This document shows, piece after piece, positions 2,448-58,576 of a stretch of DNA of 64,000 bases. This stretch comes from Raillietiella orientalis (lineage: Eukaryota): NCBI GenBank assembly GCA_036172245.1, contig JAYWIR010000054.1, positions 1 through 64,000 of the forward strand, written 5' to 3'. The position numbers and the translations under genes were made by a program. Numbering within the stretch: position 1 is the stretch's first letter; every line of letters starts with the position of its first letter. A model generated the notes under the pieces. That model did no database searches. It saw only the letters and a program-made list of their open reading frames with translations, and was not told where the DNA came from.

Positions 2448-4798
2448 TTTTCACTTGGATTTCCCCGGGGCGTTTATTGTAAAATAAACATTCATAAAGA
2501 CGCGCAGTGACTGGACCAGTGCTCCAGCCACGCATGAAGAAACACGGAGCCTTCCCGGTCACCGGTTCGCAGACCGGTACGGTCCATCTCGGCAGCAGGG
2601 GGATAAAGGACATATAAAAAAACTAAACAAAAAGAAAAGAAGAGGTGGGAGGGTAGGGGAAGGGATCACTTTTGCTGCTGGGGCCGCATCATCCTTCTCA
2701 GGATGCCGGCAAGCTCTCTCTGCATTTGCGGAACCAAGTGGGGCCATCGCGACGCCCTCCTCAGTAATTGGGAGGCGCACTGGATGGCACCCTTATCGCG
2801 GGGTCCTCCCGTAACCGTGCTCCAAGCGACGACGATCCGCGAAGGCAGCACAGGGTTGCTAACGAGGCCGCAGGCCGAAGGGCGTCGGCAACAAAGAGGG
2901 CTTTTAAGGCGTCCCTGGGGTTGCCGCAGGGGATTCCGATGGACGCGGCAAAGCGTAACCAAAGGAGCCGAAGGGCAACACAATACACAAGGAGGTGGGA
3001 TAGGGAGTCCTGTTCCCCACACCTGACGCAATTGGGGTCTACCGCTCCCCAGATCCAGTGGTGTCGGCGGGCGTTGCAGGGGAGTCCTCAGTGCTGCAAC
3101 AAGAGAGCTGACTCCTCCCATTCTAAGGGGAGGGTGATGGTTTTCATTAGTACCGGGGGCCACTTCAAACGTTCCATGGGAACGTCGAGCAGCGCGCCTC
3201 AGCGAACATGTCCATGGGGAGGCGTACACGGGGTGGAAGCGTTAGTTAGTTGACCCGTCTTCCACTCTCCTATCTTCTTCTCCTTCTCGGAGATTGTAAC
3301 TGTAACCTCCCACTTCGCCTCAACATCGCTGTCCAGATCTTCTATAAGGTAAAGCAGCGCAGCAGCGAGGGGGGTTCTTCCTGCCCACGCTCTCTTCTTT
3401 GGATCCTCCAGGATCTCGCGGTGCGTGCAACTTCTGTAATCCTTAAACAGGAACCTTCGTTCCTGTTGGGAGCGTTGCATGCCGAACAGTCCCCTCGTTC
3501 GAACGGTTTCCTGCAACCAGGCACTACCGTTCAAAGGGCGACAGGTGATCAATCCTGGGTTCTTCCGGTACAGCGCAGCCACCCTCCGTAGCTGGAGTCC
3601 GCATCGGTTGATGCGGCGACGGAGTGCAAGAAACGACGTCAGTCTCGTCTTTCCGGTGGCTTGCTGAAAAAGGAGACGTGCAGGGACGCACCAATAGGTG
3701 CACCACAACTCTGCAACAAGTGCCGACATTCGGAACTTGAGCTGAAGCTCCAGCAGCTCCAGCGTCAGGAGGCCCAGACCACCGTCCCGACAAGGAGCGC
3801 ACAAGTCGTTTAAGCAGACATGGGCTCTCTCGTTGCCACAAAGGGCGATACGGAGGAAGTCCTTTGTCCGCTTTTTAATCCTCTCTGTGGGGAGGGGAAA
3901 AACAACCAGGGGGCGGAAAAAAGGAGCCGCGAACGTGTTCCAAACCGCGGCCCGTTCAGGCAGGAAAAACCTGCCGCCTCGGAACGGTCCGATCGCCGTC
4001 TCTACTTTTTGGAGGCAGCAGGACCACGCTTCCGCAGGGGAGTAGTCCCCCAACGGCACACCAAGGTACTTGAAGTACCTTACCGTGGGATCCCCAAACG
4101 GACCTAGTCCTGCTGCCCTGCCCACGCCGCACCAACTGGCATCACGGACGACTTCGCCCTGTTCACCGTAAGTCCGGTTCCCCGATGCAGCAGGTCGAAG
4201 AACTCCTCGACCGCCGCAGCCGGGGTGGACATAGGAAGCAGCAGCAGAAGGTCCTCCGCGTACGCTGAAACGGCCGGCGTACCTGCACAGTCGTGCTGCA
4301 GGTGCGCCAGAGTTCCCCTGTACGCTCTCAGTACTAACTCAAAGTAGATACTGAAGAGCAAGGGGCTCAGGCTGTCTCCCTGCCGCATCCCACGCCGCAA
4401 CGGCACGCCGTGCACGGTCTGCCCCCTAAAAGAAACGTTGATGAGCGCGTCCCGCCAGCTGGACCGCAGATAGGCCACTAATGAGGCCGGAAAACCCAAG
4501 CGTTCCAGAAGCTCTAGAAGGAGATTCTGGTCGCCGCAATCGAATGCTTTCCGCAAGTCGATTGCGACCGCAAGGGCTCTCTCCCCCACCCGACCATCCG
4601 TCCCTATGCCGGCGCACGCACCGGAATTCTGGCCGCGCACCAAGCTCCTTTTTTGTTGGAGCTTTAGCCAGGTGGAAGCGTGGAACAGGTTCGCCTCCAT
4701 GCTTCGACCGGGAACAGCATATGTCTATTCCGGGCTGATGAAGATGTTGGCAACCCGTCCCAGACGCTCTGCCCAAACCTTAGCGAGCAACGTGGCGT
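2448..4798 (-). mobile_element. LINE family A, copy 2 (RT to 3' end, disrupted)
   Basis: DLRKAFD, GMRQGDSLSPLLF, YAED and YLGVP motifs. 3' UTR and terminal hairpin at 2448-2480. Inverted near-copy of 12390-14743. Confidence 0.92.
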
Positions 4799-4960
4799 GC
4801 GGACGTGTTTTTTCCGCGCTCCTCTGCGCCTGTTGTAAAGCGTTCTTTTTCGTTAGTGTTTGTGTGTGGAGCATTTGCGGTGTCCAATGGCAGAAATGCC
4901 TGAGGACACCGCGATGGAAGTCGCGGGGAAGAGGATTGTTTTTCTCCCCAACCTTTTGAG

Positions 4961-7083: not shown

Positions 7084-9175
7084 ATTGTCACCCGGGTGCG
7101 CCGGGGCGTTTATTATAAACTATCCGGGAACAGGGTTCCCGGACAAAGGGGAAAACAAGAGACGAAGGGGGTAGGATCCCCGACACGCAGGTCGGTGTGC
7201 CAAAAGTCCGGAACGGGAGGGAAGGGACCACAAACACACTACTATATAAAAAAATAAAAGAAAAATATGGAGGGCAGGGGACAGGGGTCTTTGGTAAATC
7301 CGTTCCTTCCTTTCAAAACCGGCGATGGATGCCGGCGATCTCTCTCCTTACGCCCTGTGTCAGATGGGCCCACTGGGCAGCCGACGACATGTTTGCGCTG
7401 GCTAATCCGGTGGGCTGACGAAGGATGGCCAGCTTCTCCAACTCTCGGTGGGCCTTGTCGATGGCGCGGGTGCAACACACGGTTGCAACGACAGCACCCA
7501 ATGACAGGCCGCCTGGCGTGAAGAAGCGGCGCATCAACTCCCTCGCGGTGTCCCCCTGATGCAGGAGAGCTGAGGCCAGCCTCCGCCAGAATCCTAGAAG
7601 GGCACCGCAGTCCAGGAGCAGGTGCGGGAGCGTTTCCACTTCCCCGCACCGCTTACAGTTTGGGGAGACGACTCCCCCGGAAACAAGGTTCGTGCGCTGG
7701 CTGGAGTGAAAACCCCAATGCACCAGCATCATCACATCCTGCTTCCACGAAAGGGGGAACACAGAAGTGTTCAGACACAAGGGAGGAACCACAAGTTCTT
7801 CAAGGGGCACACTCAAGTGTTCGCTCCACCGAAGGAGTCCCTTCGGAACGTGGCGAGGTGTGGCGGCGTCCGCCAGCTCGCAAGTCTTCCAGCCGCCAAT
7901 AGGTCGCGTTGTTCCTGCGATGGTGCAGGCGACCTCCCATCTCGCCGGTTCGCAACTGTCATCTCTTGCCCTGAGGGCTGACAGTGCGTCTTCGAGGGGG
8001 GTGACGGCCAGGCGGGTCCACTTCTCCTGGCTGTTGCACTCCTCATCCAACGTGCAGTACGGGGAGAGGTGAGCGCAACGGAGTTCCAGGAGGGAAACAT
8101 CCTGGTGCTTTGCCCAGCCATGCAACGGTTCCTGCCGCCAGGCTTGAAAGTTCGTTGGGCGGCAGGAGATCCATTCCTGGGCGTCCAGGAGCCGATACAG
8201 CGGTTTCAAGGGGAAACCGAAGCTTCTCGTGGCGCGCTCCGTGTGCGGCCGCAGCGACAGAAGTCCATCGCTGCCTGTGCAGCGCCGCAGAAGCAGGCGC
8301 GCGGGAGCGCACCACGGAGTGGACCAAAGGTTGGCGCACAGGGCCAACATCCGAAGCTGCACCTGCAGCTCGATTCTCTCCAGCGTCAGGATGCCTAAGC
8401 CAGCATCCCGACGCGGAGCCGCTAAGTCTTTGAGGCGGATCCTGGACCTCGCAGGTCCCCACAGAGCGTTCCTCAACAGGCTGTGCGCCTGGAGCTTGGC
8501 CGAGTAGGGGGGCGGGCAAACAAAAACCAGGGGGCGCAAGAGAGGGGCAACGAAGGTGTTCCAAATCGTGGCCCGCTCCGGCAGGACGAGCCTGCCATGG
8601 TGGAACGGGCTCAGGGCATTCAAAGCCTTCCGAAGGCAGTCCGACCACACTTCCATTGGGCTGATGTTCCCCAGCGGAACGCCCAGATATTGCACGGAGG
8701 AAGCGGTCGGGATCTCCAGGCGGATCCAGTCGGACTGCCCCTCCCACGCTGCACCAATAGGTAGCACCACGCTCTTGCTCCGGTTTAAGCTCATGCCCGC
8801 TCCCCGGCGAATCAGCTCGAAGAAGACCTCGAGAATGGACGCAGGGGTTGTCGTGGGTAAAAGGAGAAGGAGGTCGTCAGCATAGGCCGCCACGGACGGC
8901 GTTCCTGGACAAGAGCTCGGCAGGTTCGCCGGCGTCAGCCTGAAAGCCCTCAGCACCAACTCAAAGAAGATCCTGAAGAGCAACGGGCTTAAACTGTTGC
9001 CCTGCCTGATGCCCCGCCGCACCGGCACGCCGTACAAGTGGCATCCGCTTAAAGAAATGGGAATGCGCGCGTTGCGCCAGCAAGCGCGCAAATAGGACAC
9101 GAGGTGCATCGGGAGACCGAGGCGTTCCAGTAGCTCCAGCAGGAGATTCTGATTTACGCAGTCGAACGCCATGTG
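7084..9175 (-). mobile_element. LINE family D, 3' part (RT from AFD to 3' end)
   Basis: ORF 7313-9172 (619 aa) with GIRQGNSLSPLLF, YADD and CKRCGEVETLPHLLLDC. Terminal hairpin at 7084-7114. Confidence 0.93.
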
Positions 9176-9269
9176 CGCTCCAGGGCGGACGTGTTTTCTC
9201 GGTGCTCCTCGTGCCAGGAAGTCTCCCCCAGTGCAAGCGTCGTGTGGTTCGGTGGTCGATCAGGTAGCG

Positions 9270-10945
9270 ATGCCTGACGCGACCACCAGGGATAACCAGG
9301 GGGCAGCGGCAACGCCGCCCCCAGAGGCGATGGAGAGCCAGGGGGCGGCGGCAACGTCACCCCCAGAGGCGATGGAGGTGGGGGCGTCCGCCCCCACAGA
9401 ATCCGTCCCCGCTGCAGCGCGGGCGTGGAGCGCCGTTGTGTCGGCGCCATCGCCTGCAGCCGTGGCGGAATTGTCGGCCTATGTGGAAGAGGGGTACAAC
9501 CCCTCATTGTTCTACAAGGTAGGCAATTTATATCCTTTAGAGAGCGCGCGCGCCTTCTCGAAGGGCATGCGCGCTCTCGATGTGAAAGAGGAGGAGCTTA
9601 GTGCTATGACCATCCGCAGCGGGAGTCAGTACGTTGAGGTCATCTGCAAACATGCAGAGCTGGCCCAACGACGGCTTAAAACCCCCGTTGTGATGGGGAC
9701 GCGAAGGCTCCTCCCCACTACGGCGGACCGCAGCATGGTGGTCCACCTGTTAGGCGTGACCGCGCGAATGCGCAAAGAACAGGTTCGCGCCGCTTTGGAA
9801 CAGTTTGGAACGGTCCACGCGCAGTGGGCGAAAGTTAGTTCTTTCGAGGACTACACGGGGCTGCAACACGGCCTCACTGCTGCGCGCGCGACCGTTCGGG
9901 AGGGCTGCATTCTTCCCCACAAACTGGTGGTCGAAGGCGAAACCGTCGACCTCTGGTATGTGGGGAAGCCGAAATACTGTGGCTTCTGCAATACGTCGGG
10001 CCACCTCAAAAAGAGGTGTCCCAATGTGCAGTGCCAAGTATGCGGCACAATGGGCCACACGAGGGAGGTGTGCTCAAAAGCAGCAGTGCGGGTGGTTTCC
10101 AAGAGAAACCTTAAAAAACGCGCCCGGCTTCTGCAGAAAAGGCTGGCGGCGAAAGCTGCCGCGAAGGCTGTGCCACCCGCGCCCAAGAACCAGGCCGCAC
10201 CCGAGGCCCCGGCGACCAACGTCGAAAAAGTTGAGGGAGCCGGCCAGGAGACTGGGTGGCAAGTGGCAACGGCCAAAAAACCAAAGAAGGAGAGGAGGAT
10301 GGAGAAGAAAATCGCCTACCAACAGAAGAAGAAAGAGCAGGGTAGCGCGATAATTAAAGAGTGCAGCGTCGTTGTCGAACGCGTTCTCGATGTTGCCGAA
10401 CGCTGCCGGAAAAACTCGCCGCTACCGACGACCTCCCCTCTGTTGAAACAGTCAACAGCGAGGGGAGCGAGCCGGCGGCGGCGTCCGTCATCGACACCAC
10501 CATCGATGACGTAGCCTTCGCGCGAGCCGCGGAGGAGCTGGCAGCTTCGTTGCAGCCAGAACCCTCCAAGGCTGGCAAGAAGGCCGTAAGGCGTCCGGCC
10601 TCCCCTCAGGAGTCCCCCACTTCCGACACCGGGGTGGAGGCTGGAAGCGCAGCCTCCGTTTCCACGGCACTGCGCAAGAAGGCTGGACGTAAGTCCACAA
10701 AGCCAAGGAAGCTCGTCTCCCCCGTTGAAGGGGAAGAGATGGCTTCCGCAAGCGAGGGTGCCATCAGCGTGGGAAACTCTCGGGACCCGTCGCCCGAGAG
10801 ACTCCCACGCGCGGACACGGAGGGGATGGAGGGGGTGGAGGCCGAACAGGTGCCTTAGGTGCCTGAGAAGGCCGAAACCCCCATGGACATCCCGCCCGCC
10901 TTGCAAGAGGAGGGCTTTCCCACACCTTAATCTTCCCAGCAGTAA
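9270..10945 (+). pseudogene. ORF1 of A-1 (frameshift near 10400, premature stop)
   Basis: CGFCNTSGHLKKRC and CQVCGTMGHTREVC. Continues in ORF 10361-10858 and ends in a TAATG overlap with ORF2. Confidence 0.85.
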
Positions 10946-13900
10946 TGCCGGGAATCCCCTCCCGCCGTCGTCTGCGCATCGCCGTTTGGAACGTGAACGG
11001 CATGACAGACGCCGGCAGGAGACGAGACATGGCCGCCCTTCTGGAGTCCTACGACCTTGCGCTGCTGCAGGAGATCCACGTGATCTCTGCAGAACAAGCG
11101 CAAGAGATCGAACGGATCTCCGGAGGGCGGCTATGGTACAGGTGTGGTAGAGCAAAAAATTGCGGTGTCGCCTACTTGCTTCGGCCAGCCATCGAGGCCG
11201 CGGCACGGGGCGTCCGGTTCGACGATCACGGTCGTGTCGGCCAGCTGACTCTTAGGTGGTCCGACTTGATCGATCTGATCGTCACGAACGTGTACGCACC
11301 GAGCGGCAAGGACCTGATGAACAGGAGGGCGATGAAAGAGTTTTTCCTTGCCCTCCGGCGAGACTGGCTGACCGAAGCAGGCGTGCGGAATGCCCATCTA
11401 ATTGCAGGAGATTTCAACGTCCGCATGAAACCAGATGATCAGAATCGCGAGCGTGACCTGGTCAACGAGGTGTGCATGGCGGTGCACACCTGTAATCTGC
11501 TGGCCAGTGCACCGGGGATGGAAGACAGCATTGACCACGTGTTTCTTGACGAGCACCTGTGCCCTCGCGTGGGCAGGCGCGGCAAGTTACCGTGCGAGCT
11601 GTCCGACCATCGCCCGCTAGTCCTCGAGATCCATCCGCGCGACAGGCGCCCCTTCTCGTCAGCGTGGCGTCTCCCAGGGGACTGGCTGAAGCTCCTTGAC
11701 GCGGCGGAACATCTCCGCACGTTCATAGGGAGTTTCAGGCTGCGGACACTCCAGGATTGGGACCGCTTCAAGCGGTCGGTCCAGGAGTTCTGCGACCAGT
11801 TCCCTTTGCACCGCCTACCTACGGGTTTTGGGACCGGGGTCCGTAACGAACGAGCCTACCTGCTGGCCCGTCGTTACGCCAGGACCCCCGACATCCGCAG
11901 GCTGGCAGAATACAAAGCGGGAGCCGAGAGGCAAGTCTGGCAGTCCGGATCGTCCAGCTTACTGTACGATCAGGGCCAGGAGCACTCGGCACCTCCCCAA
12001 ATCCACGGCCTGCTGCGAAGTTACTACTCCTCCCTGTATGCCAGGGCACCTCCGGAGAGGAACGTCTCACGACTCCTGCTTCCGGAAGGCGCTCCAGCGA
12101 TCGAGGAGGAGCAGAGAAAGACCCTCGACGAGCCTTTCACGACGGACGAGATCCTTTCGGCCATCGGAAAGCTCAAGAGGCGAAAGGCTCCAGGGGAGGA
12201 TGGCCTGTTTGCGGAGTTTTATCAAACTTTCGCGGCTAAGCTTACACCCCTGGTACAGCAACTTACCTTGCTGATACGCGAAACAGGTGACGTTCCCGCC
12301 TCGTTTCGTTCGGCAAAGGTGCGGCTCCTCGCTAAGGGAGGAAATCTGAGAAGCATAAACAACTAGCGTCCCGTCACAATAGTGAATGCGGACGCCAAGT
12401 TGCTGGCTAAGGTTTGGGCAGAGCGTCTGGGACGGGTTGCCAACATCTTTATCAGCCCGGAACAGACATATGCTGTTACCGGGCGAAGCATGGAGGCGAA
12501 TCTGTTCCACGCTTCCACCTGGCTAGAGCTCCAACATGAAAGGAGCTTGGTGCGCAGCCGGAATTTCGGGGCGTGCGCCGGCAAGGGGCTGGATGGTCAG
12601 GTGGGTCAGGGAGCCCTTGCGGTCGCAATCGACTCGCGGAAAGCATTCGATTGCGTCGACCAGAATCTCCTTCTGGAGCTTCTGGAACGCTTGGGCTTCC
12701 CGGCCTCATTAGTGGCCTATCTGCGCTCCTGCTGGCGCGACGCGCTCATCAATGTTACTTTCAGCGGGCAGACCGTGCACAAAGTGCCGGTGCGGCGTGG
12801 GATCCGGCAGGGAGACAGCCTGAGCCCCTTGCACTTCAGTACCTATTTTGAGTTGGTACTGAGAGCGTACAGGGGAACTCTGGCGCACCTGCCGCACGAC
12901 TGTGCCGGTACGCCGGCCGTTCAAGCATACGCGGACGACCTTCTGCTGCTGCTCCCTATGTCCACCCCGGCTGCGGCGGTCGAGGAGTTCTTCAACCTGC
13001 TGCATCGGGGAACCGGACTTACGGTGAACAGGGCGAAGTCGTCCGTGATGCCAGTTGGTGCGGCGTGGGCAGGGCAGCAGGACTGGGTGCGTTTGCGGAT
13101 CCCCACGGTGAGGTACTTCAAGTACCTTGGTGTGCCGTTGGGGGACTACTCCCCTGCGAAAGCGTGGTCCGGCTGCCTTCAAAAAGTAGAGACGGCGATC
13201 GGCCCGTTCCGAGGCGGCAGGTTTTTCCTGCCTGAACGGGCCGCGGTTTGGAACACGTTCGCAGCTCCTCTCTTCCGCCCCCGGCTTTTTGTTTGCCCCC
13301 CCACAGAGAGGATTAAAAAGCGGACAAAGGACCTCCTCCGTATCGCCCTTTGGGGCAACGGGAGGGCCCGAGTCCGCTTAAAGGACTTGTGCGCTCCTCG
13401 TCGGGATGGTGGTCTGGGCCTCCTGACACTGGAGCGGCTGGAGCTTCAGCTCCAGTTCCGCTTGTCGGCACTCGTTCCAGAGTTGTGGTGCACCTGTTGC
13501 TGCGTCCCTGCACGTCTCCTTCTCCAGCAAGCCACCGGCAAGACGGTACTGACGTCGTTTCTTGCACTCCGTCGCCGCGTCAACTGATGCGGACTCCAGC
13601 TACGGATGGTGACTGCGCTTTATCGGAAAAACCCAGGATTGCTCACCTTTCGCCCGTTTAACGGTAGTGCCTGGTTGCAGGAAACCGTTCGAACGTGGGG
13701 ACAGTTCGGCATGCAACGCTCCCAACAGGAACGAAGGTTCCTGTTTGGGGGTTACAGAAGTTGCACGCTCCGCGAGATCCTGGAGGATCCAAAGAAGAGA
13801 GCGTGGGCAGGAAGAACCCCCCTCGCTGCTGCGCTGCCCTCCCTGATGGAAGATCTGGACAGCGATGTTGCGGCGAAGTGGGTGGTTAAAGTAACAATCT

Positions 13901-14526
13901 CAGGAAAGGAGAAGAAGATAGGAGATCGGAAGACGGGCCAGTTAACAGACGCTGCGACCCCGAGTACGCCTCCTAATGGACTTCTGCGCTGGGGCGCGCT
14001 GCTCGATGTTCCCATTGAACATCTGAAGTGGCCCCCGGTGCTCATGAACACTTCCGCCCTCCCCTTAAAATGGCAGGAGTCGGCTCTCCTGTTGCAGCAC
14101 TGGGGACTCCCCTGCAACGCCCGCCGACACCACTGGACCTGGGGAGCGGTGGACCCCAATTGCGTCAGGTGTGGGGAACGGGAGATCCTCCCCCACCTGC
14201 TAGTGGATTGTGTTGCCCTTCGGCCCCTTTGGTTTCGCTTTGCCGCGGCCATCGGAATCCCCTGCGGCAACCCCAGTGGCGCACTGAAAGCCCTCTTCGT
14301 TGCCGACGCCCTTCGGCCAGCGGCCTCGTTAGCAGCTTTGTGCTGCCTACGCGGGATCGTCACCGCTTGGAGCAAGGCTACGGGAGGACAACGCGACCAG
14401 AGTGCCATCCAGCCAGCCTCCCAGTTCCTGAGGAGGGCGTCCCGATGGCCCCACCTGGATCCAGGAATACAGAAGGAGCTTGCCGGCATCCTGCAAAGGA
14501 TGCAACAGCCCCACCAGCGACTGTGA
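10945..14526 (+). pseudogene. ORF2 (APE endonuclease-RT-CCHC) of A-1 with two in-frame stops
   Basis: ORFs 10945-12366, 12382-13587 and 13606-14526 share one frame. Motifs WNVNG, NVYAP, GDFN, SDH, PGEDG, KAFD, YADD and CVRCGEREILPHLLVDC. Confidence 0.93.
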
Positions 14527-14743
14527 TCCCTTCCCTTACCCTCCCAACTTTTCTTTTCTTTTTTGTTTTGTTTTTTTGTTTTTCCCCCTTCCCCCTGCTG
14601 CCGTGGTGGACCGCACCGGTCTGCGAACCGGTGACCCGGCAGGCTCTGTTTCTTCGTGCGTGGCTGGAGCAATGGTCCAGCCACCGCACGTCTTTGTAAA
14701 AGTTTATTTTACAATAAACGCCCCGGCGAAATCCGGGTGAAAA

Positions 14744-41177: not shown

Positions 41178-41179
41178 AC

Positions 41180-45363: not shown

Positions 45364-47400
45364 AAAAGAGGGGAAGGCGGCCAGGCCCATGCGCCTCTCG
45401 CGTGGATCAACGTTTATTTCTGGCGCTCACCAAAGTAGCGTTCTGTCATGGAATTCTGTGGAGGCGCTGAAAGAGCGTGGCCGCCAACATGAACGATGTC
45501 CTGCGTTCTCTCCATGCTTTTATTGACTGCGCGTATTCACCTGGAGCTCCTTGTTTCCCGCCTTTTTGCATTTCCGTGGTTTTCAATGCTTTCTGAAGCA
45601 ATATTATCTTCCGAAAGACGGTGACCGGAAAACCGTCAAGCGCCAAAGCCGTGTTTGCGTGGAAGAAGAGGATTCACGAGTTGGGGAAGGAAGGGAGTTG
45701 ATTTCTCTTCCTGTGTTGGTGCACGGGATCGGAAACAGCTGAGATTACCTTCTCTTTGTCATGGAATGGGCAGCTCCTCTTTGTTCCATGTACACCCAGG
45801 AGAAAACGGCGGCATTTATGACGCTCTGTCTTCTAATTTTGGGGTTCTTTCGACATGGAATTATAAGTAGGCGCTGCAAGGGCGTAGGCAATCGAGAGCC
45901 TTCTTTCGTGAACGCTCTTCTGGCGCCTCCCACATAGTGCAAGAGCTCACTATGGCGCTGGCGTTGTCTGCAGAATGGCGCATTCCGTAATGACTTTTTT
46001 GTCTCCCGCTGTCGTTGTGCAGATTCTTTCCGTGCAACGACGCTCTGCATTGCACGCAGGAAGGCGCCGGCATTTGTGGCGCGTGCCGATGGTACGAAGC
46101 AGAGGTGTTTTCATTTGGATTCTATTGCGGCTGCGTAATTTAGGTCTGTCGCCCGGGTGTCTTCTATTCTTTGTGATGCGTAATCGTAAGATTGGTTTCC
46201 TTGACCCAGGCTTCGACCCGCAGTGATGATCTCGTCTCCTCGCGCCTCTTAACTCTATAGGGAAGGAGAACGCTTCTACTTCTTGTCGCCTGCGGTTTTC
46301 TTTCGCCCTTGCTCTATGGTGTTACCACCGTTCCGGTGAGGTGGCATGGTTTGGAAGTGCTTTTGTGGTGACGCTGCTCTTAGGCAGTCGGTGCTTCCGA
46401 ACACACGGTCGTGGTTGATGCACCTTTTCAGAGTGCAGCTGAAGTTCTTGCTGCAATGCAAAGTCATCTTGGATGGTACGGAGCAAAAAACTGTCCCGAG
46501 TTTCGCGGCATAAATCCCTTCTTTTGTGAACTCAGAAGAAACGTTTACCACTACAGTCATCAGTGTGCAGTATTTCTAAAGAATTTCCTAATTTGTGGTT
46601 CTCCATTTGAGTGGTCACCTTACTCAACATGCGGTTGCTGCCTCCACGGTAGTAGATGGGTGGAAAGCGACGAAAGGTTCGTTCCTTTTGGCTGCACACC
46701 AACACGTACAACTCGTTTCCACGTCTTCTAGAACAGGTAGTGAACTGCCTGTGGTCTGCAGTGCTTCATGGGTCACGTTGACGTTCTGGAAGACGTCGAT
46801 CAGCAGACGGTGAAGCGCGAGAGACTCCTTTTCGTGTGATTGGAAGATTCACGCGTTGACGATGAAAAGTAAGCCGTTTTTGCTGCTTTTTGGCGTGTCA
46901 AATCGCATGCAGCTGAGGACACTCACTTTTCGTCGCATCGAGAGCTGCCTTTCGTTCGTTGCAGAATCGGCATTAACCGGCGCCATGTCCTTTGATTTAG
47001 GTCCATCCAATCGCTGATTCGACGTCTGCACGCAAGAGATGGTACACCCTCAAAATGCAATTAATTTGAAGGAAGTTTCTTGACTGCGTTGGCTGGTGGT
47101 CACCGCATTGCTGCGCGCGTTGGCCCGTACTTGAGCTATCATTGTGAACGCGAGTTACTCGTCATCGCCTCCGTACTGCTGAAAGCTGAGTGCGCGTTTT
47201 GCCAACTAGGAGAGCTAAATTCCATGCATACATCAGTCGCATGTCTCTTTGTACATGTGACGTCACTCGATTGGGCGACTTTGAGCTTCTAGTATCCCTT
47301 ATATGATGCGGAAAACCGCCTGGGGGTACAGTGTGGCTCCGAAGAGAGTGGTGCCTCTGTAAAGAGAGGAACTGTCCCCTCTTCCGCCGACGCCGCAAAT
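45364..47400 (-). other. Lower-GC degenerate segment, possibly an old unrelated L1 ORF2 remnant
   Basis: Minus-strand peptides ALDGFPVTVFRK (cf. PGxDGxPxEF), TVVVNVSS and HDRVF occur in EN-to-RT order. No long ORF. Confidence 0.35.
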
Positions 47401-47439
47401 GCTAATGGACGGAGGCAGCTGTATGAGTGACATCACCAA

Positions 47440-48000
47440 ATCGTAGAGCACCACTTGGTGCGTTCACGCCCGCTTTCTTGCCAGGCGTGTCTCCAGGACG
47501 CAAGGACAAGCATCTTATCTTCTGTGCTCCGTCCAAAAGATGGGAAGATGCGGTCTGCTCCTTCGACGCATCTCCACCTTGGCTAAGGAGATTGGCTGGA
47601 TGGTATGCAGCCCCGCCAACTCCTCCACATGGCTGGCGGAGACTGCTGGCACGTGGGCGAAGATACATGAGAGGAGCCACGAAAGGTAGAACCGTTTGCG
47701 AATCGGGTTCTACGCCCGCCGCACTCTGCGTGAAATTCTTGAACTTCCACCGAGTTGCACGTGGACGGAACGGACACCTCTTGCAACGGCGATGCCCTTT
47801 CTCCAAAGGGCGCTTCACGAAAGCCGGCAGCCAAGGTGGCAAGTCTGCTGCCCTATCGCAGGCAGAGAGAAGATATTGAGCGGCTGGACCATGGGAGAAC
47901 TGACAGATGATACGAAGCCTAGTGTCCAGCCGCGTGGTTCAATAAGATGGGACGAGCTGCTCGGCATTCGATTGGATGACCTGAAGTGACCCCCGGCAAA
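47440..48000 (+). pseudogene. Degenerate post-RT ORF2 fragment
   Basis: YARRTLREILE...RTPLA...GWTMGELTD...RWDELL...LK*PP resembles the C-termini of the other ORF2s. Confidence 0.7.
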
Positions 48001-48004
48001 CTTG

Positions 48005-50630
48005 CGGCAAACCTGCGCCGGTGCCGCACGCGTTTTTGGTTAGCGCCCGTGAGCGAATCCAAGAACAGTTGTTGGAAGTGTGGAAGTGCGGCCGTTGGAA
48101 GGCAGAAATGCCTGAAGACGCCGCAGTACCTGCGACGGGAGACGTGAGGCCCACGTCTCCCCAACCTATGGAGGTGGGGTCATGCCCCACCACAAAATCA
48201 GCCCCCGCCACCCCGGCGAGGGCGTGGAACAAGGTGGCCGCGGCGGCTCCGCCGGACGTGGCTGCTGAATTGCAAGCCTACATAAAGGAGGGCTGCAACC
48301 CAGCCCTCCTTTATAAGGTGGGAAACTTATATTCTCCGCTTACAACGCGGAAATTTGGTGATGCCATCCGTAAGATGGGAATTTCTGACGAGGAGATTCT
48401 ATGCTTCTCGATTCGAAGCGGCGAGCAGTTCGCGGAGCTGATCTGCAGAGATGCAGCGCTCACGCACAAACTGCTCTGCACGCCCGTTCCGTTCGATGGG
48501 CGGAATCTCCTCCCACACACGGTGGATCACTCCATGGTGATCCACCTAACCGGTACAACGATGCGGATGAGCGACGAAGCCATCCGCACTGAAATCAACA
48601 AGTTCGCGGAGATATACGCGATGTGGTCGAAGCCCAACGCCTTTACTTATCGAGGCGCATTCAGTGGGCGAGTTGCCGCACGCGTAACTCTCCGCGAAAA
48701 CAAAAACTTCCCCACAAGCTGGAGGTCAACGACGAGCTCGTCGACCTCTGGTACGTGGGGAAAAAAAAATACTGTGGGCTGTGCAACACATTCGAGCATC
48801 TTAAAAAGAGATGCCCGGATGCCATATGCCCAACCTGCGGCGCGAAGGGCCACACTAGTGCTGTGTGCCCGAAAAACGCCGCGACAACGCCTTCAGCCCC
48901 TTCGACAAATGAGGAGAAGAAGGCATAAAACCAAAAAACAAGCAACCAACAGCCGACCTCAGAAGAAGTCGTGCACAAGGAGCAGGAGACTTCTGAGCCA
49001 ACTGCCGACGAGGAAAACTAGAAAGTCGTTTTAAACAAAAAAGCAAAAGAAACACAAAAAAAAAAAAAAAAATATCTACAAAAAATAACAAAAATCAGAA
49101 CGCGAGCGTTCCCAAAAAACCCGCGGTCGGCAAACCAAAAATTTCGCCGCGCGAGTCCATAAAGGAATGCCGCGTTACAATCGAGCGCGTTCCGTCGATC
49201 GAGTGTCGATCGGCGAACGCGACTCCCGCAACCGTCGCGAACGCCGCGGAACCGCCGCAGGAATCCTGCGACAAACACGCGCGCAGCAGCGACGAGAAAA
49301 ACTTCGCGAAGCCGGCGGAGGAACTCGCGGCCACCTTAATGCAGCCGCCTAAGGCTGCAAAGAAGGCCGTCAGACGTCCGGCGGAGATAAGGGCCCGGAA
49401 GTTTCCGGGTCCGAGGCGGAAGCCGGAAACCCTCCCACCGTCGCACTTCCGAAGAGGAAGGCGGGCCGGAAGTCGCGCAACCCTATGCGCGTCGCTCCCC
49501 CTCAGGCTGAGGAGGAGGAGATGCGCTCGGATAGCGCAGAGGCGATGTCCGCGAGGTAGCGGGATCCCTTCATGGATAGCATCCGGTCGGACCTTCCTAT
49601 CGACCTCAGTCCGACTGCCGACGTTCCGGTCGTTGGGGGAACGCCACCAGCGCAGATGAACAACGACCAGCCGCCTCCCGAACAGGAGGCGGCAATACAC
49701 ACGCCACCACCATCACTAGTATGATGCGTGGAATCGCCTCTTGCCGGCAGCTGCGTATAGCCTGTTGGAATGTCAACGGGCTGCGTAGCGAAAGCAAGAG
49801 GCGTAGCGTGGCCGACACCCTGCGACCTTTCGATCTGGCACTTCTTCAAGAGGTGCATGCCCTCAGAGCAGAGGACGTCCAGGAAATCGAGAGGCTCACA
49901 GGGGGGAGGCTACTTTGGCGTGGTGGAGGAGACCACTGCCGCGGAGTGGCTTTCCTGCTGAAGCCGGCCGTCGCCAATGCGGTGCGCAGTTCACAGTTCG
50001 ACGAGGAAGGTCGAGTCGGACAACTTGTCCTTAAGTGGTCCGAATCGATCGACCTCGTAGTCACGAACCTGTACGCGCCCTGCACCAGCCACAGGCGCAC
50101 AGAACGCACTGCGTTCTTCGAAGCCCTGCGGCGAGACTGGCTGGCCGAAGCAGGCGTGCGGCGGGCGCATCTGATAGCGGGAGACTTCAACGTCCGCCTG
50201 CTGTCGGAAGCCCCCGACATACGAGCACAATTGGTCAACGAGTTGTGTGCGGCTATGCACACAACTCGTTGACCGATGGCCACCGATGCAACTTGTTTGC
50301 CGATGAAGCCGGGGCGAGAAGCAGAATCGACCACGTGTTCCTCGATAACCACATGTGTACGCGGGTGGGGACTCGAGGAGCAATTGCGTCGGAGCTGTCC
50401 GATCACCCTCGGCTAGTGATCAACATTCATTCGCGCGACAGAGCTTCACCCTCCGAAGCGTGGCGCCTGCCGGGGGACTGGTTGCGACTCGCAGGAGCGC
50501 GCAAACATCTGCGCGCATTCCTGCGTAGTTGCGAACTGCAGACTCTCGCTGAATGGGACAAAATAAAACGCTCAGTCCGAGAGTTCTGTGACCAGTTTCC
50601 CCTCCATCAACTTCCTCCAGGTTTCGGCGA
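48005..50630 (+). mobile_element. LINE family G, copy 1 (ORF1 and endonuclease, disrupted)
   Basis: ORF1 from ATG 48108 (CGLCNTFEHLKKRC, CPTCGAKGHTSAVC). ORF2 from 49721 with WNVNG, GDFN and SDH. Ends at LPPGFG. Confidence 0.9.
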
Positions 50631-51095
50631 TGCCACCCGGATACGCCGGGACGTTTATTAAAAAACATTTCAACGGTCAATACAGAACGTGGTACAAGGC
50701 TCCACTGACGGCCACGGAATGCCGGAACTGCCGGGACACCGGGACGCAGCCCGGTGTGGCTCTCCTCGGCAGTGGAGGGGAATGGGGGAAAGAACAAAAA
50801 TAAAATAAAAGAGAAAAACAAACCACAAAAAAAAAAAGTTTGGAGGGCCGGGAAGGGATCACAGAAAACTGCTAGGAGCGCCCATCCTTTGCAGGATGCC
50901 TTCTAGTTCCATTTTCAGTATTCCTAGATGGGGCCATCGGGTAGCTCTCTGCAGGAAGCGAGAAGCATACTCGATGACATCCCTCACGATGCAGTCTTCA
51001 TTTTCGGCATCACTCCAGGCCGCCACGATACCACGAATGCAGCAAAGTGCTGCCAGGGCTGCGGCTGGACTGAGGGCGTCCCGCACGACCAGCAC
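50631..51095 (-). mobile_element. LINE 3' end (probably family B2)
   Basis: DALSPAAALAALCCIRGIV...RWPHL, a T-rich UTR and hairpin at 50631-50659. Family assignment is inferred from the target site. Confidence 0.8.
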
Positions 51096-51481: not shown

Positions 51482-52288
51482 ATGCCATACGGACATTTTT
51501 TATACTGATGCTTCACCCTCTGCAACTACTTGGAAAACGAACTACAACTGATAAAAGACTGGTGCAGACGACACTGCACATTCGCAGTAATCGGAAAAGA
51601 GACGGCAAGCACCGGAACACCACACCTCCAGGGATATTTCCAACTCCGCAATCCGCGGACCTTACCAAGCTTAAAAAGACCACCGTTTGAAAAAGCACAC
51701 CTCGAACGCGCAAAATGTACACCACAGAGCAGCTTACGGTACTGCACGAAAGAGGACCGCGAAGCTTGGACATACGGACTCATTCAACAACAAAAAGAAA
51801 CCAACGATTATCAAGACATGGTAAATATGCTTTTCAAACTTAACCAAACTAATACAGATGACTTTCAGATACTACAACTTATAAAAAATGGAGCAACAGA
51901 ACTGGACATACTAGAGCAACACACAAAATTTTACTCCAAGAACTTCAACTTTGTTAAAGAGTGCTTCAGATTAACAAGAAGCAGACTTCACCCTAACCCA
52001 ATGGCTAACCTACAACTGAGAAACTGGCAGATGGACATCCTTAAAATAATAAGGAGCACACCAGACCCCAGAAAAACACACTGGTTCTACGATCCCGTCG
52101 GAGGAATAGGAAAAACCACCTTCACAAAATTCTTGTACCTCAAAAAATCTGCGATATACATGCACAGCTGCAAGAAGGCCGATGCAGCCCACATTTACCA
52201 TGGAGAGAGGATAATAGTGGTTGATCTCACCTGAGACAACCAAGAAATAGTTCAATACGGATTCATCGAGACTTTGAAAAACGGAAGC
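51482..52288 (+). pseudogene. rep: Endogenous CRESS-DNA virus Rep (HUH endonuclease + SF3 helicase), copy 1
   Basis: Motif I CFTLCNY, motif II TPHLQGY, motif III YCTKE, Walker A GGIGKT, Walker B IVVDL, then ETLKNG. In-frame TGA at 51506 and 52232. 3'-truncated and AT-rich. Confidence 0.92.
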
Positions 52289-52852
52289 CTGAGGAGAACG
52301 AAACCCTAATGGTCATCTCACCCGCCTCGGAAGAGGCGGCTTCCCCCACACCGTCATCTTCCCGGCAGTAATGCCGGGAATCTCCTCCCGTCGTCGTCTG
52401 CGCATCGCCGTATGGAACGTAAACGGCATGACAGACGCCGGCAAGAGAGGAGACATGGCCGCCATTCTAGGATCGTTCGACCTTGCGCTGCTGCAGGAGA
52501 TCCATGTGATTTCTGCAGAACAAGCGCGGGAGATCGAACGCATCTTCGGAGGGCGGCTGTGGTATCAGAGTGGAAAATCGAGAAGTTGTGGTGTCGACTA
52601 CCTGCTTCAGCCCGCACTCGAGGTTGCGGCCCGTGGCGAGCGGTTCGACGATCACGGTCGTGTCGGCCAGCTGACTCTCAGTTGTTCCGACTCGATCGAC
52701 CTGATCGTCACGAACGTTTACGCCCCGAGCGGAGCGGACCTGACGAAGAGGAGGGCCAGGAAAGTATTTTTCCTTGCCGTCCGTCACGACTGGTTGACCG
52801 AGGCAGGCGTGCGGAATGCCCATCTGGTTGCAGGGGATTTCAACGTTCGCCT
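52289..52852 (+). mobile_element. LINE family A, copy 3 (ORF1 tail and endonuclease up to GDFN)
   Basis: TAATG junction at 52369-52373. MPGISSRRRLRIAVWNVNG...HLVAGDFNVRL. Resumes at 58577. Confidence 0.9.
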
Positions 52853-55800
52853 TCATACGAGTCGGACGTGATTTCGTGTCGCTCCGTGGTTCCGCTGTTT
52901 GGTTGTGTTTGTGCATCCCACTGCATATCCGTAAGGATGAGCAGTGAACAACGCAAAGTGGAAGACCTCGGGCCTTTGGTTCAGGAACTTCACGCAGCTG
53001 GAGTGATGGCGACAACGTGTGCGAGCCTCGCGCCACCGGACAGGAGCTTTGCGGACGTGGCTGCTTCTGCAGCCGTACAAGGATGCCTCCCCGACCAGGC
53101 GGAGATGCAAGCCTATGTAGCCCAGGGATACAAGCCTGATCTCCGCTATAACGTAAGTGGGGTAGGTAAGGCTGGGGAGGAGTTCGCGGACGAACTCTAC
53201 CGTGTGGGAGTGCGAGAAGAGGACCTCATAGCACTCATGCCTGTTCCAGCATTGGGCTATGTAAAGGTGCGATGCAAGCAGGCTGCGCTTGTGCAGCGGC
53301 TCCTCCGCACTCCTTTGCCCATCCGCGGAAAGAAAGTTTTTCCTTCCGCGATGGACGAGTCTTTTGTCGTTGTTCTCTCGGACGTAGAGCCGGAGATCAA
53401 CGACAAACAGTTGATGGACGCGTTGGCGAAATTCGCAACCGTTCATGCGGTGTGGAGGAAGGAGAGTTCCTACAGAAAATTTCCTTCCGTACACACAGGA
53501 TTTGCTGCGGTTAGGGTAACCGTTGCTAACCACCGCACGCTGCCTGCCACGCTACAGGTCAACGGCACGGTCGTTCACCTGTGGTTCGTTGGCAAATCTC
53601 GCGCGTGCGAGCAATGCGGCAAAGAAGGGCATCGGGGTAAAGAATGCCCTTCCCCGAAGTGCCGCTACTGTAAGGAGTCCGGGCACCAAATTAGAAAGTG
53701 CCCGGACATAAAGAAAAAAAAGGAGGCTGCTAACCTCCGACGTGCCAAAGAGTGCGCAGAGGAGAAAACAGCATCCTCAAAGAAAAAAAAACAGGCTCGC
53801 GAAAGGCCTAAGATAAAGAAGGCCCGAGCGCGGTCTCAAAGTTGGCTCCCTCAGCATCCAAGCCCCAAAAGGGCAATAGCGCGGCAGGGAAGCCATTTAA
53901 AAAAGGGCGAGAGGGCTCCGCGCGTACCGTTACTGTCCCAATAGCTGATCGCGGAAACGCTACTCGCGAAATGGGATCAGTAAAACCAGTGGCTCCGTGC
54001 GACAAGGCAAAAGGAGGACACGCGAAAGAAAATTGCGTGGTAACCGTCTCCTTGAGCGCTCTGTCCATTTCGGAGGCTTCAGTCGGAAACCTCACGAATG
54101 CGTCCGCAGGTGCGTCGGAAAAAGCCAACGAAAGCAGCGTTGCGTTGCCTCAAAACGCGCAGCAACCAGCTGCATCCTCCCCAACAAGACAGTCGCGGAG
54201 CAATCTCCCGACTGCCGCGGAGGCCGCGCTTTCGCCGCCTTTTGAGGGTGCAGCGAAAGCTGAGCCCCAGGCGGTTGCGGAGGTACGTTCGGAGGCGTCC
54301 CTCACGAAAGTCGAGGAGCGCTCCGCACGAACGGACGGTGGGTGGACGGTTGCAGTGAAAGGGAGAAAAATAAAATCTCCCAAACATTCTCCGCAACCTA
54401 GTTCTAAGAGCCTCTCCAAGGCAAAGAACAGTCGCTCGATGCAGAAGACTCGGGCGAAGGTTCCCTCTGCCGCTGCAAAGGCTACCGCCGCGGTCGCGAA
54501 TGGCGCGACAGTTGCGATCACCAGGGACGATGTCCCGGTGATCGCGAAAAAGGAAGTGTCCGCGGTCCCATTCGCGAGCACCTCCAAACCGACAGAGCAG
54601 GTGAGTCGCGAAGCGCCTGCGCTTCAATCAGACTCCCAAACGGAGTCTAAGATCACCGACGCACTTCGGATCACACGCGCGGAAGCCGTAGCGCGACGGG
54701 CTAAGGCCCTGAGGCGCGCAGCGCAGGCCGCGAAGGAGCGACAGCTCACCCCGGACCGTCAAACGACCCTACCCGGAGACGAGCACTCGAATTCGTGCAG
54801 CACCAGGGAAGACGGTGGCGACCGTGATCTCTAGCCAGCAGTGCTGCTTACCGTCCGCTCGCCGGTGAAAGCGGGCAAAAAGCCGCCAACTTCCCAGCAT
54901 TCATGCGGGGAATCGCTTCTTCTCGTCGCCTGTCCGTCGCGTGTTGTAACGTGAACGGACTGCAGAACGACGAAAAGAGGCCATTGGTAGTTAACGCCCT
55001 GCACTCCTTTGACCTCGCGCTCCTGCAGGAGATTCACGTAATCTCCGACGAGCAGGCTGCGAAATCGAAGAGCGCGCAGGCGGAACGCTACTTTGGCGGT
55101 GCGGCGACCCACACACGTGCAACTTCGCGATCCTCGTAGGAGGAAAAATGGCGGAAGCGGTACGTGGCGTTCGCTTTGATGACTGCGGACGGGTGGGCCA
55201 GCTTGTTGTCAAGCGGTCCGAGTCCTTCGATCTCGTCGTTAAGAACATCTACGCGCCTACTGGCTCACATCTTCCTCGATGAAAACCTGCACCCTCGTGT
55301 GGGAAGAAGAGGAAGATTGTCGTCCGCTCTCTCTGACCATCACAGGTTGGAGTTCGAGCTCCTTTCGTCAGGCAAGGGGCCTCCGTTAAAGAACTGGAGA
55401 ATGCCAGCGGATTGGCTTAGCCATCCGGAGGCGGTGGATCATCTCCGTTAGCACCTCCGGACCTTTGTCATCCGCGAACTCGCGGACTGGGATCATTTAA
55501 AGAGTTCAGTCCGCAAGTTCTGTGAACGGTTTCCCTTGCACCGGCTTCCGCGAGGCTTTGGACAAGGGGTCGCCAACAGCAGGACTTTCCTGCAGGCGCG
55601 CACCTTTTCGAGACGCGCGGATGTCAGCCGGCTTGCGGAATACAGAGCGAGAGCCGAGCGCCAGGTCTGGCAGGCAGAAGCATCTTCCCTGCTCGATGAA
55701 AAAGGCCTGGAATGCTCGGCACCAGCCGGTATTCGCCGCATAATAAAAAGTTATTACTCCTCGCTATACGCGGAAGCACCAACGGAAATTATCCTTTTGG

Positions 55801-58576
55801 AGATACTGCTTTCCCAGGTTGCTGCCGTAGTTAGCGAAGAGGAACGCTCACGTCTCGACGAGTCCTTCACGGAGGAGGAAATTTCCTCCGCAACAGCGAA
55901 GCTCCAGAGACGAAAAGCGCCAGGCGAGGATGGGCTGCCTGCGGAGTTTTATCAGTGCTTCGCGGGGGAGCTCGTCCCCCTGGTGCATCGCCTCTAGTCG
56001 CTGATGAGGGTTTCGAGGGATGTCCCCAACTCCTTCCGCTCAGCGAGGGTGCGTCTCCTTCCGAAAGGTGGAGACGCACGCCATTTAAACAACTGTCGTC
56101 CGGTCACTTTGGTGAACTCGGACGTCAAGTTGTCCTCCAAGATGTGGGTTGCGCGCCTAGGGAGAATCGCGCCATCCTTGGTGAGCCCGGAGCAGACTCG
56201 CTGTTCCCGGGTGATCCATGGACGCGAACCTCCTGTTTGCACGCATCCGGATGCAGCTGCAGGAGCGCGTAGCGCAGCAAAGTCGATCCGTGACAAATGC
56301 CACTGCTAAACGCACACGGTATCGACAGAAGCGGCAAGAGAGTACGCCGGGTGCCTTGGCGGTTGCAGTCGACCTCCACAAGGCGTTCGATTGCGTAAAC
56401 CAAGCACTCCTATTGGAGCTCTTGGAACGCCTAGGTCTCGCTGCTCAACTCCTCAAGTACTTGCGCGCATGCTGGCGCCACGCACTAACTTCCATTTGTT
56501 TAAGCGGCTGCCACGTGTACGGTATTCCCGTGCGCAGGGGCATCAGGCAGGGTGACAGTTTAAGCCCGTTGCTCTTCCGCATCTTCTTCTAGTTGGTGCT
56601 AAGGGCGTACAGGCTGACGCTGGAGTACCTGCCTTGCTCTTGCCCGGGAACGCCTGCCGTGGCTGCCCATGCAGATGACCTGCTTCTTCTGCTCCCCATG
56701 TCCATCTGGGCGTCCAGTGTGGAAGACGTCTTAGACCTGGTTCGTCCTGAGCGGGCGTGAGCGTGAACAGAGAGAAGAGCGTGGTCGTTCATGTGGGTGC
56801 GTCGTGGGAGGGGCAGTCCGACTGGATCCGCCTGGGAATCCCCACAGCGGGGTACTTCAAGTACCTTGGCGTTCCGTTGGGCGACCTCGGCGCTGCCGAG
56901 GCGTGGTCGGACTGCCTTCATAAGGCCGAATTGGCCGCCAGCCCGTTCATTAACGGCAAGTTCACCTTGCCGGAACAAGCGGCTATTTGGAACACCTTCG
57001 TGGCCCCCCTCCTCCGACCCCTCTTTTTTGTCTTGGACCCCCCCTATGCGGCCAAAGAGCGGGCAAAACGCCTGCTAAGGAACGCTCTCTGGGGTCCGGC
57101 GCGATCCAGGATCCGCCTAAAAGACCTCACTGCTCCACGTCGGGATGCTGGGCTTGGCATCCTTACGATGGAGAGAATCGGACTGCAAGTGCAGTTCCGG
57201 ATGCTCGCACTTTGTGCCGCGCTATGGACTTCCCCCTGTGTGCGCCTGCGCGCATCCTCCTGAGGAGGTGTGCAGGCAGTGAAGGATTACTTTCTTTGGT
57301 GCCTGGCTTGCGCCACAGGAAACAGGGATTTGGCTATCCTTTGAGGAAAATCGCCACCCTATTGGAAGCCAGTACGTGGATTACCTGCCGCCCAATGAAC
57401 TATAATGCTTGGAAGCAGGAAACCATTGATTCGTGGGCTGCATTCTTAGGGATGAGCCGTGAAGATCTTCGCCCCCTGCGTCAATTCCAGCCTTGGTCAC
57501 TCCAACATGTCATGCAGGACGAGGTGAAGCTTTCCTCCTTGGCCGCCACCCCCCTTGCCGAAGCACTGTCTGCCCTCGAGGCTCGAGATGACAGTAGCCA
57601 GCCGGCAAGGTGGGAGTTCTCCTGCACCATTGCAGGAAGAACAAAACCAGTTGGCAAATGGACCACGAGCGAGCTTGCGGATGCCGACACTCCTCGTGCT
57701 ACACCAAAGGGATTTCTTCGGTGGGGAGAAGCTCTTGGTGTTGCCCCCGAAGAACTTATAGTCCCTCCCTGGTGTTTGGACGGTTCGGTGTTTCCCCTTG
57801 CATAGAAGCAAGACGTTTTGCTTTTCTTGCACTGGGGATTGCGCTACAACGAACGGCGCCACCGAGTTTCCGGTGGGGTGGCTTCTAACCTACTGTGCCC
57901 GGTGCGGAGCTACAGAGTCGTTCCCGCACCTTGTTATGGACTGCGGTGCCCTCCAGGAACTCTGGAGGAGGCTAGGAGCAGCTCTCCCGTCACCAGGAGA
58001 CACCGCTCGAGAAGTGCTGCGACGGTTCTTCCAGACACAAGGACTTTCGATGGCTGCGACGATTTCCACTGTTGGTTGCATCCGGGCCATCGTCACGGTC
58101 CGAGACGTGCTGGAGAATACTGGACAGCAATGTTGTGTCACCAGGAAGGCAGCTGACTTCATCAGGTCGGCAGCTGGGTGGCGACACATATATGAAGACA
58201 CAACGGAGGAGTTGACCGGTATCCATCGCTGGATCAGCAACGGCTTAGAACGACGAAATCGGTGATCCGCCCTCATTTTATTTTTGATTGGTTTTTTTGT
58301 TCTCGCGTCCTTTTCCCTTTACGTTCCGCAGTCCTTTTGGTGGTAGAACTTTTGAGTTTCCCGGTGAGTGCGGAGCAATACTAAAGTTCCCTGCCCACTC
58401 CTCCCATTTACAATTTTTTTTTTTTTTGGACTCCCCTCAGTCGTCCATGTTCTTCCGTTTTCCTGGCCTGCGTGCCAGGGGTGAATCTCCGCTGCATGTT
58501 TTCAGAGTCGAGAGCTAGAAACAATTGTTTCCAGCTCGTTTATGTCAATAAACGTCCCGGCGTGACCGGGTGAAAA
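52853..58576 (+). mobile_element. Full-length degenerate LINE family H, copy 2, with 16-bp TSD
   Basis: atttcaacgttcgcct at 52837-52852 and 58577-58592. ORF1 from ATG 52937 (CEQCGKEGHRGKEC). ORF2 ~54903-58265. Hairpin at 58547-58576. Confidence 0.94.

Follow-up and report, generated by a model that had tools for sequence, protein, structure and literature searches.

Eleven copies of retroelements, which belong to seven lineages of long interspersed nuclear elements (LINEs), end in one and the same short tail in a stretch of DNA from Raillietiella orientalis (contig JAYWIR010000054.1 of assembly GCA_036172245.1, positions 1 to 64,000; here called the window). This single 64-kb window has 56–62% G+C, consists nearly completely of related retroelements that are nested in or adjoin each other, and represents the whole evidence base of the present analysis. 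The tail is the true terminus of these elements, is far better conserved than the sequence around it and occurs on every copy that retains its end, including a 5'-truncated one. It can be considered, with moderate confidence, as a 3' recognition module of the stringent type that serves target-primed reverse transcription and in which a common stem would be combined with lineage-specific loops. That the terminal stem folds in the RNA, is bound by a protein and lies before the start point of the cDNA is what we infer from these sequences.

Tail coordinates are given from the AATAAA hexamer through the last base. The consensus reads AATAAA-YGY-CCCGG-(5 or 6 nt)-CCGGG-TG-A-N-AA with a length of 30–31 nt. 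With at most one mismatch the motif AATAAANNNCCCGG is found 12 times in the window against 0.84 expected matches, a number reached in none of 100 shuffles; 11 of these matches are tails and the remaining one (37939–37952, reverse strand) is not. The exact pattern CCCGG-N4-8-CCGGG occurs nine times (1.12 expected), namely in seven tails and at two non-tail sites (49394 and 52361), and in the other four tails an arm is altered by at least one substitution. All 11 copies whose second open reading frame (ORF2) extends to its last ~50 residues possess the tail. Two more copies, with ORF2 ends at 42920 and 48001, are interrupted earlier by other insertions and no tail was seen in them.

The 11 tail-bearing copies were sorted into lineages A to G by blastn identity. 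Lineage A comprises two copies with 89.8% mutual identity: Xc (tail 14713–14743, forward strand) with the stem CCCGG/CCGGG, the loop CGAAAT and the end GTGAAAA, and Xa (2448–2478, reverse strand), whose stem is decayed (GGGGAAATCCAAG; covariance-model score 38.8 bits). Both copies of lineage B, Xb (7085–7114, reverse strand; loop CGCAC, end GTGACAA) and a second one at 45291–45320 on the forward strand, are 89.6% identical. Lineage C contains three copies with 89–95% identity: E7 (40665–40694, forward strand), which has an intact ORF2 and a 3' stem arm with a single C-to-T substitution, E8 (41149–41178, forward strand), which is a 5'-truncated copy (40700–41178) directly behind E7 with the flanks (C)GTGG, and E5 (23148–23177, reverse strand; loop CACAT, end GTGTGAA). 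Lineages D and E, 73% identical to each other, are represented on the forward strand by X1 (34392–34421) and X2 (58547–58576), respectively. The single tail of lineage F (21162–21192, forward strand; loop CGCAA, 3' arm CCGGA) belongs to a copy with 74% identity to lineage A, and that of lineage G (50630–50659, reverse strand; loop CGTAT, end GTGGCA) to a copy with 36% protein identity to lineage C over the last 77 residues.

An identity profile with one representative per lineage gives the tail a mean identity of 0.83 (range 0.77–0.93), as compared with 0.48–0.58 in each of the five 30-nt blocks upstream of it, 0.54 in the C-terminal coding region of ORF2 and 0.45 for random 30-mers of the window. 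The tail is therefore the sole strongly conserved part of the 3' untranslated region (UTR), with the reservation that the seven lineages are interrelated and such conservation counts are not fully independent. Within the tail the AATAAA hexamer is invariant in all 11 copies, and in every lineage 24–25 nt separate it from the DNA end of the copy. The bases past the TG vary by lineage (AAAA, ACAA, ATAA, AATAA, TGAA or GCA).

Three full-length copies on the forward strand reveal where the elements end. They are bracketed by target-site duplications (TSDs), which are TCGAACGCC (9 bp; 9162–9170 and 14744–14752) for Xc at 9171–14743, ATTTCAATC (9 bp; 28507–28515 and 34422–34430) for X1 at 28516–34421, and ATTTCAACGTTCGCCT (16 bp; 52837–52852 and 58577–58592) for X2 at 52853–58576. 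Comparison with uninterrupted copies demonstrates that the interrupted host sequence resumes exactly at these three insertions, and the element end is GTGAAAA or GTGATAA, 6 nt past the stem. From the duplications together with the exact resumption of the host it follows that the tails are genuine element termini. An empty site is available as well: when contigs of three DNA sequencing runs from one study were aligned to the window, one contig of the run X1 was found to connect 28506 to 34422 with 9 letters matching both sides. Other contigs diverge from the window just past 34423. The alignment also showed loose ends at 34392 and 34423 and variation among copies. In lineage B the mutual homology of the two copies ends at 7085 and 45320.

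No run of eight or more A or T adjoins any of the 11 tails, and short tandem repeats are absent from their extreme ends (GTGAAAA, GTGACAA, GTGATAA etc.). Microhomology of the tail end with the target was considered and dropped, as none is visible at the three junctions defined by TSDs. Complementarity between loop and target was likewise abandoned; the sequence CGAA is common to both in lineage A only and no rule holds across the lineages.

An initial annotation of this DNA had listed 11 sites as LINE-like 3' ends that share one hairpin with conserved arms and varying loops in several diverged lineages and lack a long poly(A). All its sites were recovered with coordinates matching to 1 nt or better, and on each of these points it was right: the copies have ORF2 content, exact ends and, in three cases, TSDs, no long A or T run stands beside the tails, one tail is common to seven lineages at the above-mentioned identity, 52 of 55 cells of the stem are paired with lineage-specific loops, and CACAT has to be added to the loop set. 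Its description of the upstream UTRs as poorly alignable is correct at the sequence level and overlooks two further conserved hairpins, here called SL-B and SL-A (the terminal CCCGG/CCGGG stem being SL-C).

In SL-B, an A/U hairpin, the AAUAAA hexamer serves as 3' arm and would pair with an upstream UUUAUU. It is found in nine of the 11 copies and six of the seven lineages, with perfect stems of 5–8 bp and loops of 3–5 nt, and between 6 and 227 out of 2000 local shuffles equal the stem of a given copy. A typical example is the 8-bp hairpin GTTTATTA-ttat-TAATAAAC of lineage D (34379–34398, forward strand; 6 of 2000 shuffles). Immediately 5' of the hexamer the base and its partner form G:C, A:T or T:A depending on the copy, the core of the hairpin being otherwise invariant.

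SL-A is a GC-rich hairpin of 8–14 bp with lineage-specific sequence that precedes the hexamer by 7–30 nt in lineages A to E. Its folding energies are −25.6 kcal/mol in lineage A (14655–14690), −18.8 kcal/mol in lineage C (40606–40638) and −18.0 kcal/mol in lineage D (34352–34380, upstream of SL-B), all on the forward strand, and −16.7 kcal/mol in lineage B (7121–7145, reverse strand). Compared with lineage D, the hairpin of lineage E (58512–58537, forward strand) has pairs in which both partners are changed. In an alignment of four copies (two of B, one of D and one of E), which was fitted to the model and thus leans towards structure, four of ten pairs are altered on both sides and 85% of the cells are paired. 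Covariation scores 0.25, as compared with 0.17 for shuffles; nine of 500 shuffles reach this score and 36 of 500 the pair count. This covariation appears to give modest support for an RNA structure. A presumed G:C-to-A:U compensation within lineage B had to be rejected because it actually consists of one wobble and one mismatch. The fold z-scores of the last ~100 nt, calculated for nine of the 11 copies, are −4.8, −3.1, −2.6, −3.2, −2.3, −0.6, +0.5, −1.7 and −0.9, which means that five of them lie below −2.

On this basis the following sequence of events is proposed. The ORF2 protein would bind the terminal stem-loop of its own RNA, with the GC stem serving as common grip and the loop of 5–6 nt as lineage-specific part. 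Binding would position the reverse transcriptase (RT) so that target-primed reverse transcription begins at a fixed point 6 nt past the stem, and initiation would be independent of a poly(A) tail or of pairing with the nicked target. The complete module would comprise the tail of 30–31 nt, usually preceded by the AAUAAA-containing A/U hairpin and the lineage-specific GC hairpin. Such a stringent-type module is in keeping with an end that is exact and keeps a constant distance from the conserved stem-loop in all copies, with the lack of both poly(A) and target pairing, and with the site preference described below. The tail is present also on the 5'-truncated copy E8 of 479 bp, as is predicted if synthesis starts at the 3' end.

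Several observations weigh against this interpretation. Covariation is confined to the upstream hairpin, i.e. to four copies in a model-fitted alignment, and a clear upstream hairpin was not seen in lineages F and G. Four of the nine copies fold no better than shuffles (z −1.7 to +0.5), the weak folders being mostly visibly decayed copies or members of lineages F and G. In the terminal stem none of the five pairs is altered on both sides and shuffles score equally, so that of the two outcomes that the initial annotation had set as its test (conservation of the stem and covariation) only conservation was obtained. The conservation of SL-C would be accounted for equally well by a motif in the linear sequence or by a signal acting on the DNA level, and RNA structure is unproven for this stem because it never covaries. 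AAUAAA stands 24–25 nt before the end, as poly(A) signals usually do, which fits a role in RNA processing as well. Finally, no SINE-like carrier of the tail (SINE, short interspersed nuclear element) was detected in the window by the covariance-model search; to look for SINEs ending in this hairpin had been proposed in the initial annotation. This search over the 64 kb returned only the 11 LINE tails; the next match (12 bits, E 1.6) falls in an AT-rich insert without a hairpin.

Departures from the perfect terminal stem are limited to one mismatched pair in the tail at 21162, two in that at 2448, and one C-to-U wobble each in those at 40665 and 41149. These breaks and wobbles are single substitutions that are private to single copies and the sister copy is intact; they are therefore read as decay after insertion. 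With the exception of one C-to-G in the tail at 2448, every change in the decayed tails is a C-to-T or G-to-A transition, mostly at CpG.

As the main alternative the tail could be a signal for 3'-end formation, in which case AAUAAA would act as poly(A) signal and the cleavage some 24 nt downstream would be set or protected by the GC hairpin. The terminal A's would then represent the start of a poly(A) that was barely entered by reverse transcription, and the conservation would reflect the host machinery instead of the RT. The hexamer, which is invariant in all 11 tails with the end 24–25 nt past it in every lineage, is in line with such a role, and so are the A-rich ends (AAAA, ACAA, ATAA, TGAA) and one lineage B copy with three extra A's compared to its sister (GACAA|TCAAT vs GACAAAAAG). 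However, long A runs are absent from all copies, and the bases past the TG depend on the lineage and are thus mostly templated. Moreover, a generic host signal would require neither the sequestration of AAUAAA in a hairpin of 5–8 bp, as found in nine of the 11 copies, nor an invariant CCCGG/CCGGG with exact spacing. We regard processing as a possible but doubtful explanation of the tail; it is compatible with a module recognized by the RT.

The 3' stem-loop of histone mRNAs has a comparable layout, and an element for RNA stability, export or translation that is not used by the RT could have been built in the same manner: behind a short GC stem-loop there is a single-stranded end of constant length (6 nt) without poly(A). 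This would leave the precise cDNA end of all 11 copies, including the truncated one, unexplained, and the window has no match in Rfam, so that we consider this explanation unlikely. Even less probable is a DNA-level signal, i.e. a near-palindrome serving as landing pad or host-factor site and accounting for the clustering, for which the position of E8 directly behind the tail of E7 and the two CCGG sites in the arms could be quoted: just one insertion out of 11 sits behind a tail, which led us to drop the landing pad, and the others, as far as their hosts are assigned, interrupt ORF1 or ORF2 of other copies at positions that have nothing to do with the tail.

With the tail taken as a recognition module for the RT, the distribution of insertion sites becomes of interest. 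Hosts were identified for ten of the 11 tail junctions (the exception is the flank of 45320) and all ten are ORF1 or ORF2 of other copies. The 11 junctions comprise at least seven different target sites, so there is no restriction to a single target, and three positions in the ORF2 of hosts were each struck at least twice by independent events. At the site coding for GDFN in the host endonuclease, X1 of lineage D and X2 of lineage E both inserted in sense before ATTTCAA (28507–28515/34422–34430 and 52837–52852/58577–58592). These two events are considered independent because the duplications differ in length (9 and 16 bp), the hosts being 66–68% identical. At the KAFD-coding site the two lineage A copies, which are 89.8% identical, lie antisense before TCGAAYGCC (2448 and 14744–14752) in hosts with only 65.3% identity. 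The PGFG-coding site is adjoined at the same position by two copies of one lineage (94.1% identical) in hosts of 65.6% identity, and the tail of lineage G adjoins the PGFG motif in a third host (sites 1537–1620, 26075–26160 and 50620–50640). Because the inserts resemble each other more closely than the hosts do, or because the TSDs differ in length, these cases represent independent repeat insertions.

Such repeats imply that the elements have sequence preferences in nicking, like site-specific LINEs, and nicking of this kind would build nests of LINEs within LINEs. The dinucleotide TC is the first past the tail in four to five of 11 junctions (2447, 7084, 14744, 23147 and 50629) as compared with a background frequency of 0.066 (binomial probability 0.004 to 0.0004), with two of these junctions sharing one site; the nick on the primed strand would accordingly be expected after YGA. 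In the tandem of lineage C the truncated E8 stands exactly behind the tail of E7 (40695–41183) and both copies are followed by CGTGG, which suggests either that one nick site was used again or that the template was switched onto the 3' end of a second RNA.

Taken further, and offered as a tentative scenario of rather low probability, L1-like lineages of ancient divergence, seven or more in number, might home into each other, each by nicking specific codons (at the GDFN-, PGFG- and KAFD-coding sites) in the most conserved catalytic motifs of the ORF2 of other copies. They would have one common 3' module for precise priming independent of poly(A), private loops for self-recognition and AAUAAA as a structural arm instead of a poly(A) signal, and their nests would be centromere-like.

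Similar termini are known from the L2 clade. UnaL2, ZfL2-1 and ZfL2-2 likewise possess a conserved 3'-terminal stem-loop, and PMC4176376 reports for zebrafish L2 (ZfL2) that the region between endonuclease and RT recognizes the stem generally and the loop specifically. The tails described here also combine a common stem with a lineage-specific loop. They differ from the L2 clade in that the ORF2 of the window is closest to L1 ORF2p and the hexamer AAUAAA is included in the module; recognition of their stem-loop is postulated by analogy. UnaL2 moreover has terminal TGTAA repeats according to PMC3747384, and the tails of the window are without terminal repeats. The initial annotation had inferred a structure for RT binding or 3' processing, a role that would agree with the anatomy and with published stringent-type LINEs (PMC4176376, PMC3747384), and had suggested that, being shared, it might permit cross-mobilisation. 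With a common stem and private loops the analogy suggests discrimination as much as sharing: because the zebrafish L2 loop confers cognate-specific recognition (PMC4176376), the loops may keep the lineages apart.

For the L1 clade PMC3747384 describes elements of maize and sorghum with a divergence of 0.144 in the last 45 nt, where a hairpin is located, against 0.570 for the whole element. It further reports that Chlamydomonas L1-1_CR shares its tail with SINEX-3_CR and that monocot LINEs of lineage 1a are paired with ZmSINE2/3, and proposes an ancestral stringent mode for the L1s of green plants. Judged from these descriptions, the monocot elements resemble those of the window in having an end that is far more conserved than the rest (identity 0.83 vs about 0.5 in the window). 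In contrast, their stem covaries with fixed flanking or loop bases and the stem of the window is fixed with a variable loop. The monocot and Chlamydomonas elements end in poly(A) in the same account (PMC3747384) and have partner SINEs, unlike the elements of the window, where no poly(A) and no such partner was seen.

The distinction from R2, R1 and SART1 is of another kind. These elements resemble those of the window in a precise cDNA start at a structured RNA 3' end without target pairing and in the repeated use of the same target nucleotide, and SART1 depends on its own 3' UTR (PMC3747384). The elements of the window are of the type with an apurinic/apyrimidinic endonuclease (APE), have L1-like ORFs and are not of the R2 type; they hit several targets, all in LINE copies, instead of one host gene.

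In its architecture the window can be likened to the nests formed by Zepp, since the whole 64 kb is one nest. Zepp carries poly(A). PMC3446292 and PMC8226300 depict Zepp and ZeppL as GC-rich L1 LINEs of green algae that insert into existing copies and form nested clusters of tens of kb, and such LINE-only clusters are mentioned also in PMC9940879 and PMC11005252. The Zepp clusters are described as arrays mostly of 3' ends, in contrast with the window, which holds several full-length copies. In some green algae, LINE-only nests are regarded as markers of the centromeres (PMC3446292, PMC8226300).

Selection of the own RNA by a 3' stem-loop is known mainly from L2-type elements and has so far only been proposed for the L1 type (PMC3747384). 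The window offers a natural series of one invariant stem in seven lineages with differing loops, exact ends and an intact ORF2 of 1185 residues. This makes it a good test system for the discrimination of self and non-self by the enzyme and for the start of copying, even if the kind of signal is an expected one and no new principle. The repeated strikes on the same codons of other copies suggest a route by which LINE-only nests grow.

Judged by their coding capacity, the elements of the window are L1-like non-LTR (long terminal repeat) retrotransposons, i.e. LINEs with APE endonuclease and RT. This assignment is made because of the ORF2 domains, a C-terminal motif, the closest solved relative and the CCHC knuckles of ORF1. 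The longest frame (36794–40432) matches Exo_endo_phos (1.4e-16) and RVT_1 (1.3e-22), both past the Pfam cut-offs, and has a weak match to zf-RVT (23.7 bits, under the cut-off of 27.5). It contains the intact, stop-free ORF2 of E7 (36875–40429; 1185 residues from the first Met), in the translation of which a C-x2-C-x7-H-x4-C motif (CDRC-x7-H-x4-C) is found near the C-terminus. Its closest match in the PDB is human L1 ORF2p (2.5e-46), R2 proteins following at about 1e-14 (R2 2.4e-14), and two CCHC zinc knuckles occur on ORF1 frames. The ORF2 proteins of the other lineages are 34–64% identical to that of lineage C, and named relatives 25–30%. The full-length copy Xc has an ORF1 frame at 9153–10514 and ORF2 at 10867–14526 with two in-frame stops (12364–12366 and 13585–13587); as there is no frameshift it is regarded as a fairly recent dead copy.

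A full scan with the ORF2 protein revealed one relative with 64% identity, P0009 on a metagenome contig of 2870 bp, followed by 36% at most. A word-based protein search gave only matches of 22–29% identity and a look-up in a protein atlas led to LINE-like clusters. The full tail motif was detected elsewhere at nine loci of metagenome contigs and six of prokaryote contigs, none with ORF2 homology, and at none of viral contigs. These 15 loci were rejected as relatives since they look like chance occurrences in GC-rich bacterial DNA without ORF2 homology at E ≤ 1, the sole exception being a match of 28 residues to ORF2 (E 0.31).

Besides the tails, the 5' ends of full-length copies from different lineages have the common sequence GYGCGGACGTG(T)TTTT after 0–13 variable bases. 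It is located at 4803–4820, 9184–9200, 15658–15675, 28516–28535 and 52859–52875, and on the reverse strand near 1575–1600 and 26100–26125, and could be an internal promoter or a start-site motif. Behind the lineage B tail a region of ~2.1 kb (45321–47446) has no match to ORF1, ORF2 or Pfam; it is opened, 20 nt past the tail, by the 5'-end-like sequence TTCGGACGTG and may be a heavily decayed or highly divergent copy. At 59515–59815 an AT-rich insert of ~300 bp, which contains AATAAATGC without the hairpin, splits the ORF2 frame of a GC-rich copy. A frame of 241 residues at 51509–52234 on the forward strand matches the Pfam family Viral_Rep (PF02407, replication protein of CRESS-DNA viruses; E 2.9e-11, 43.9 bits, cut-off 26) and looks like a putative virus-derived fragment inside the LINE nest.

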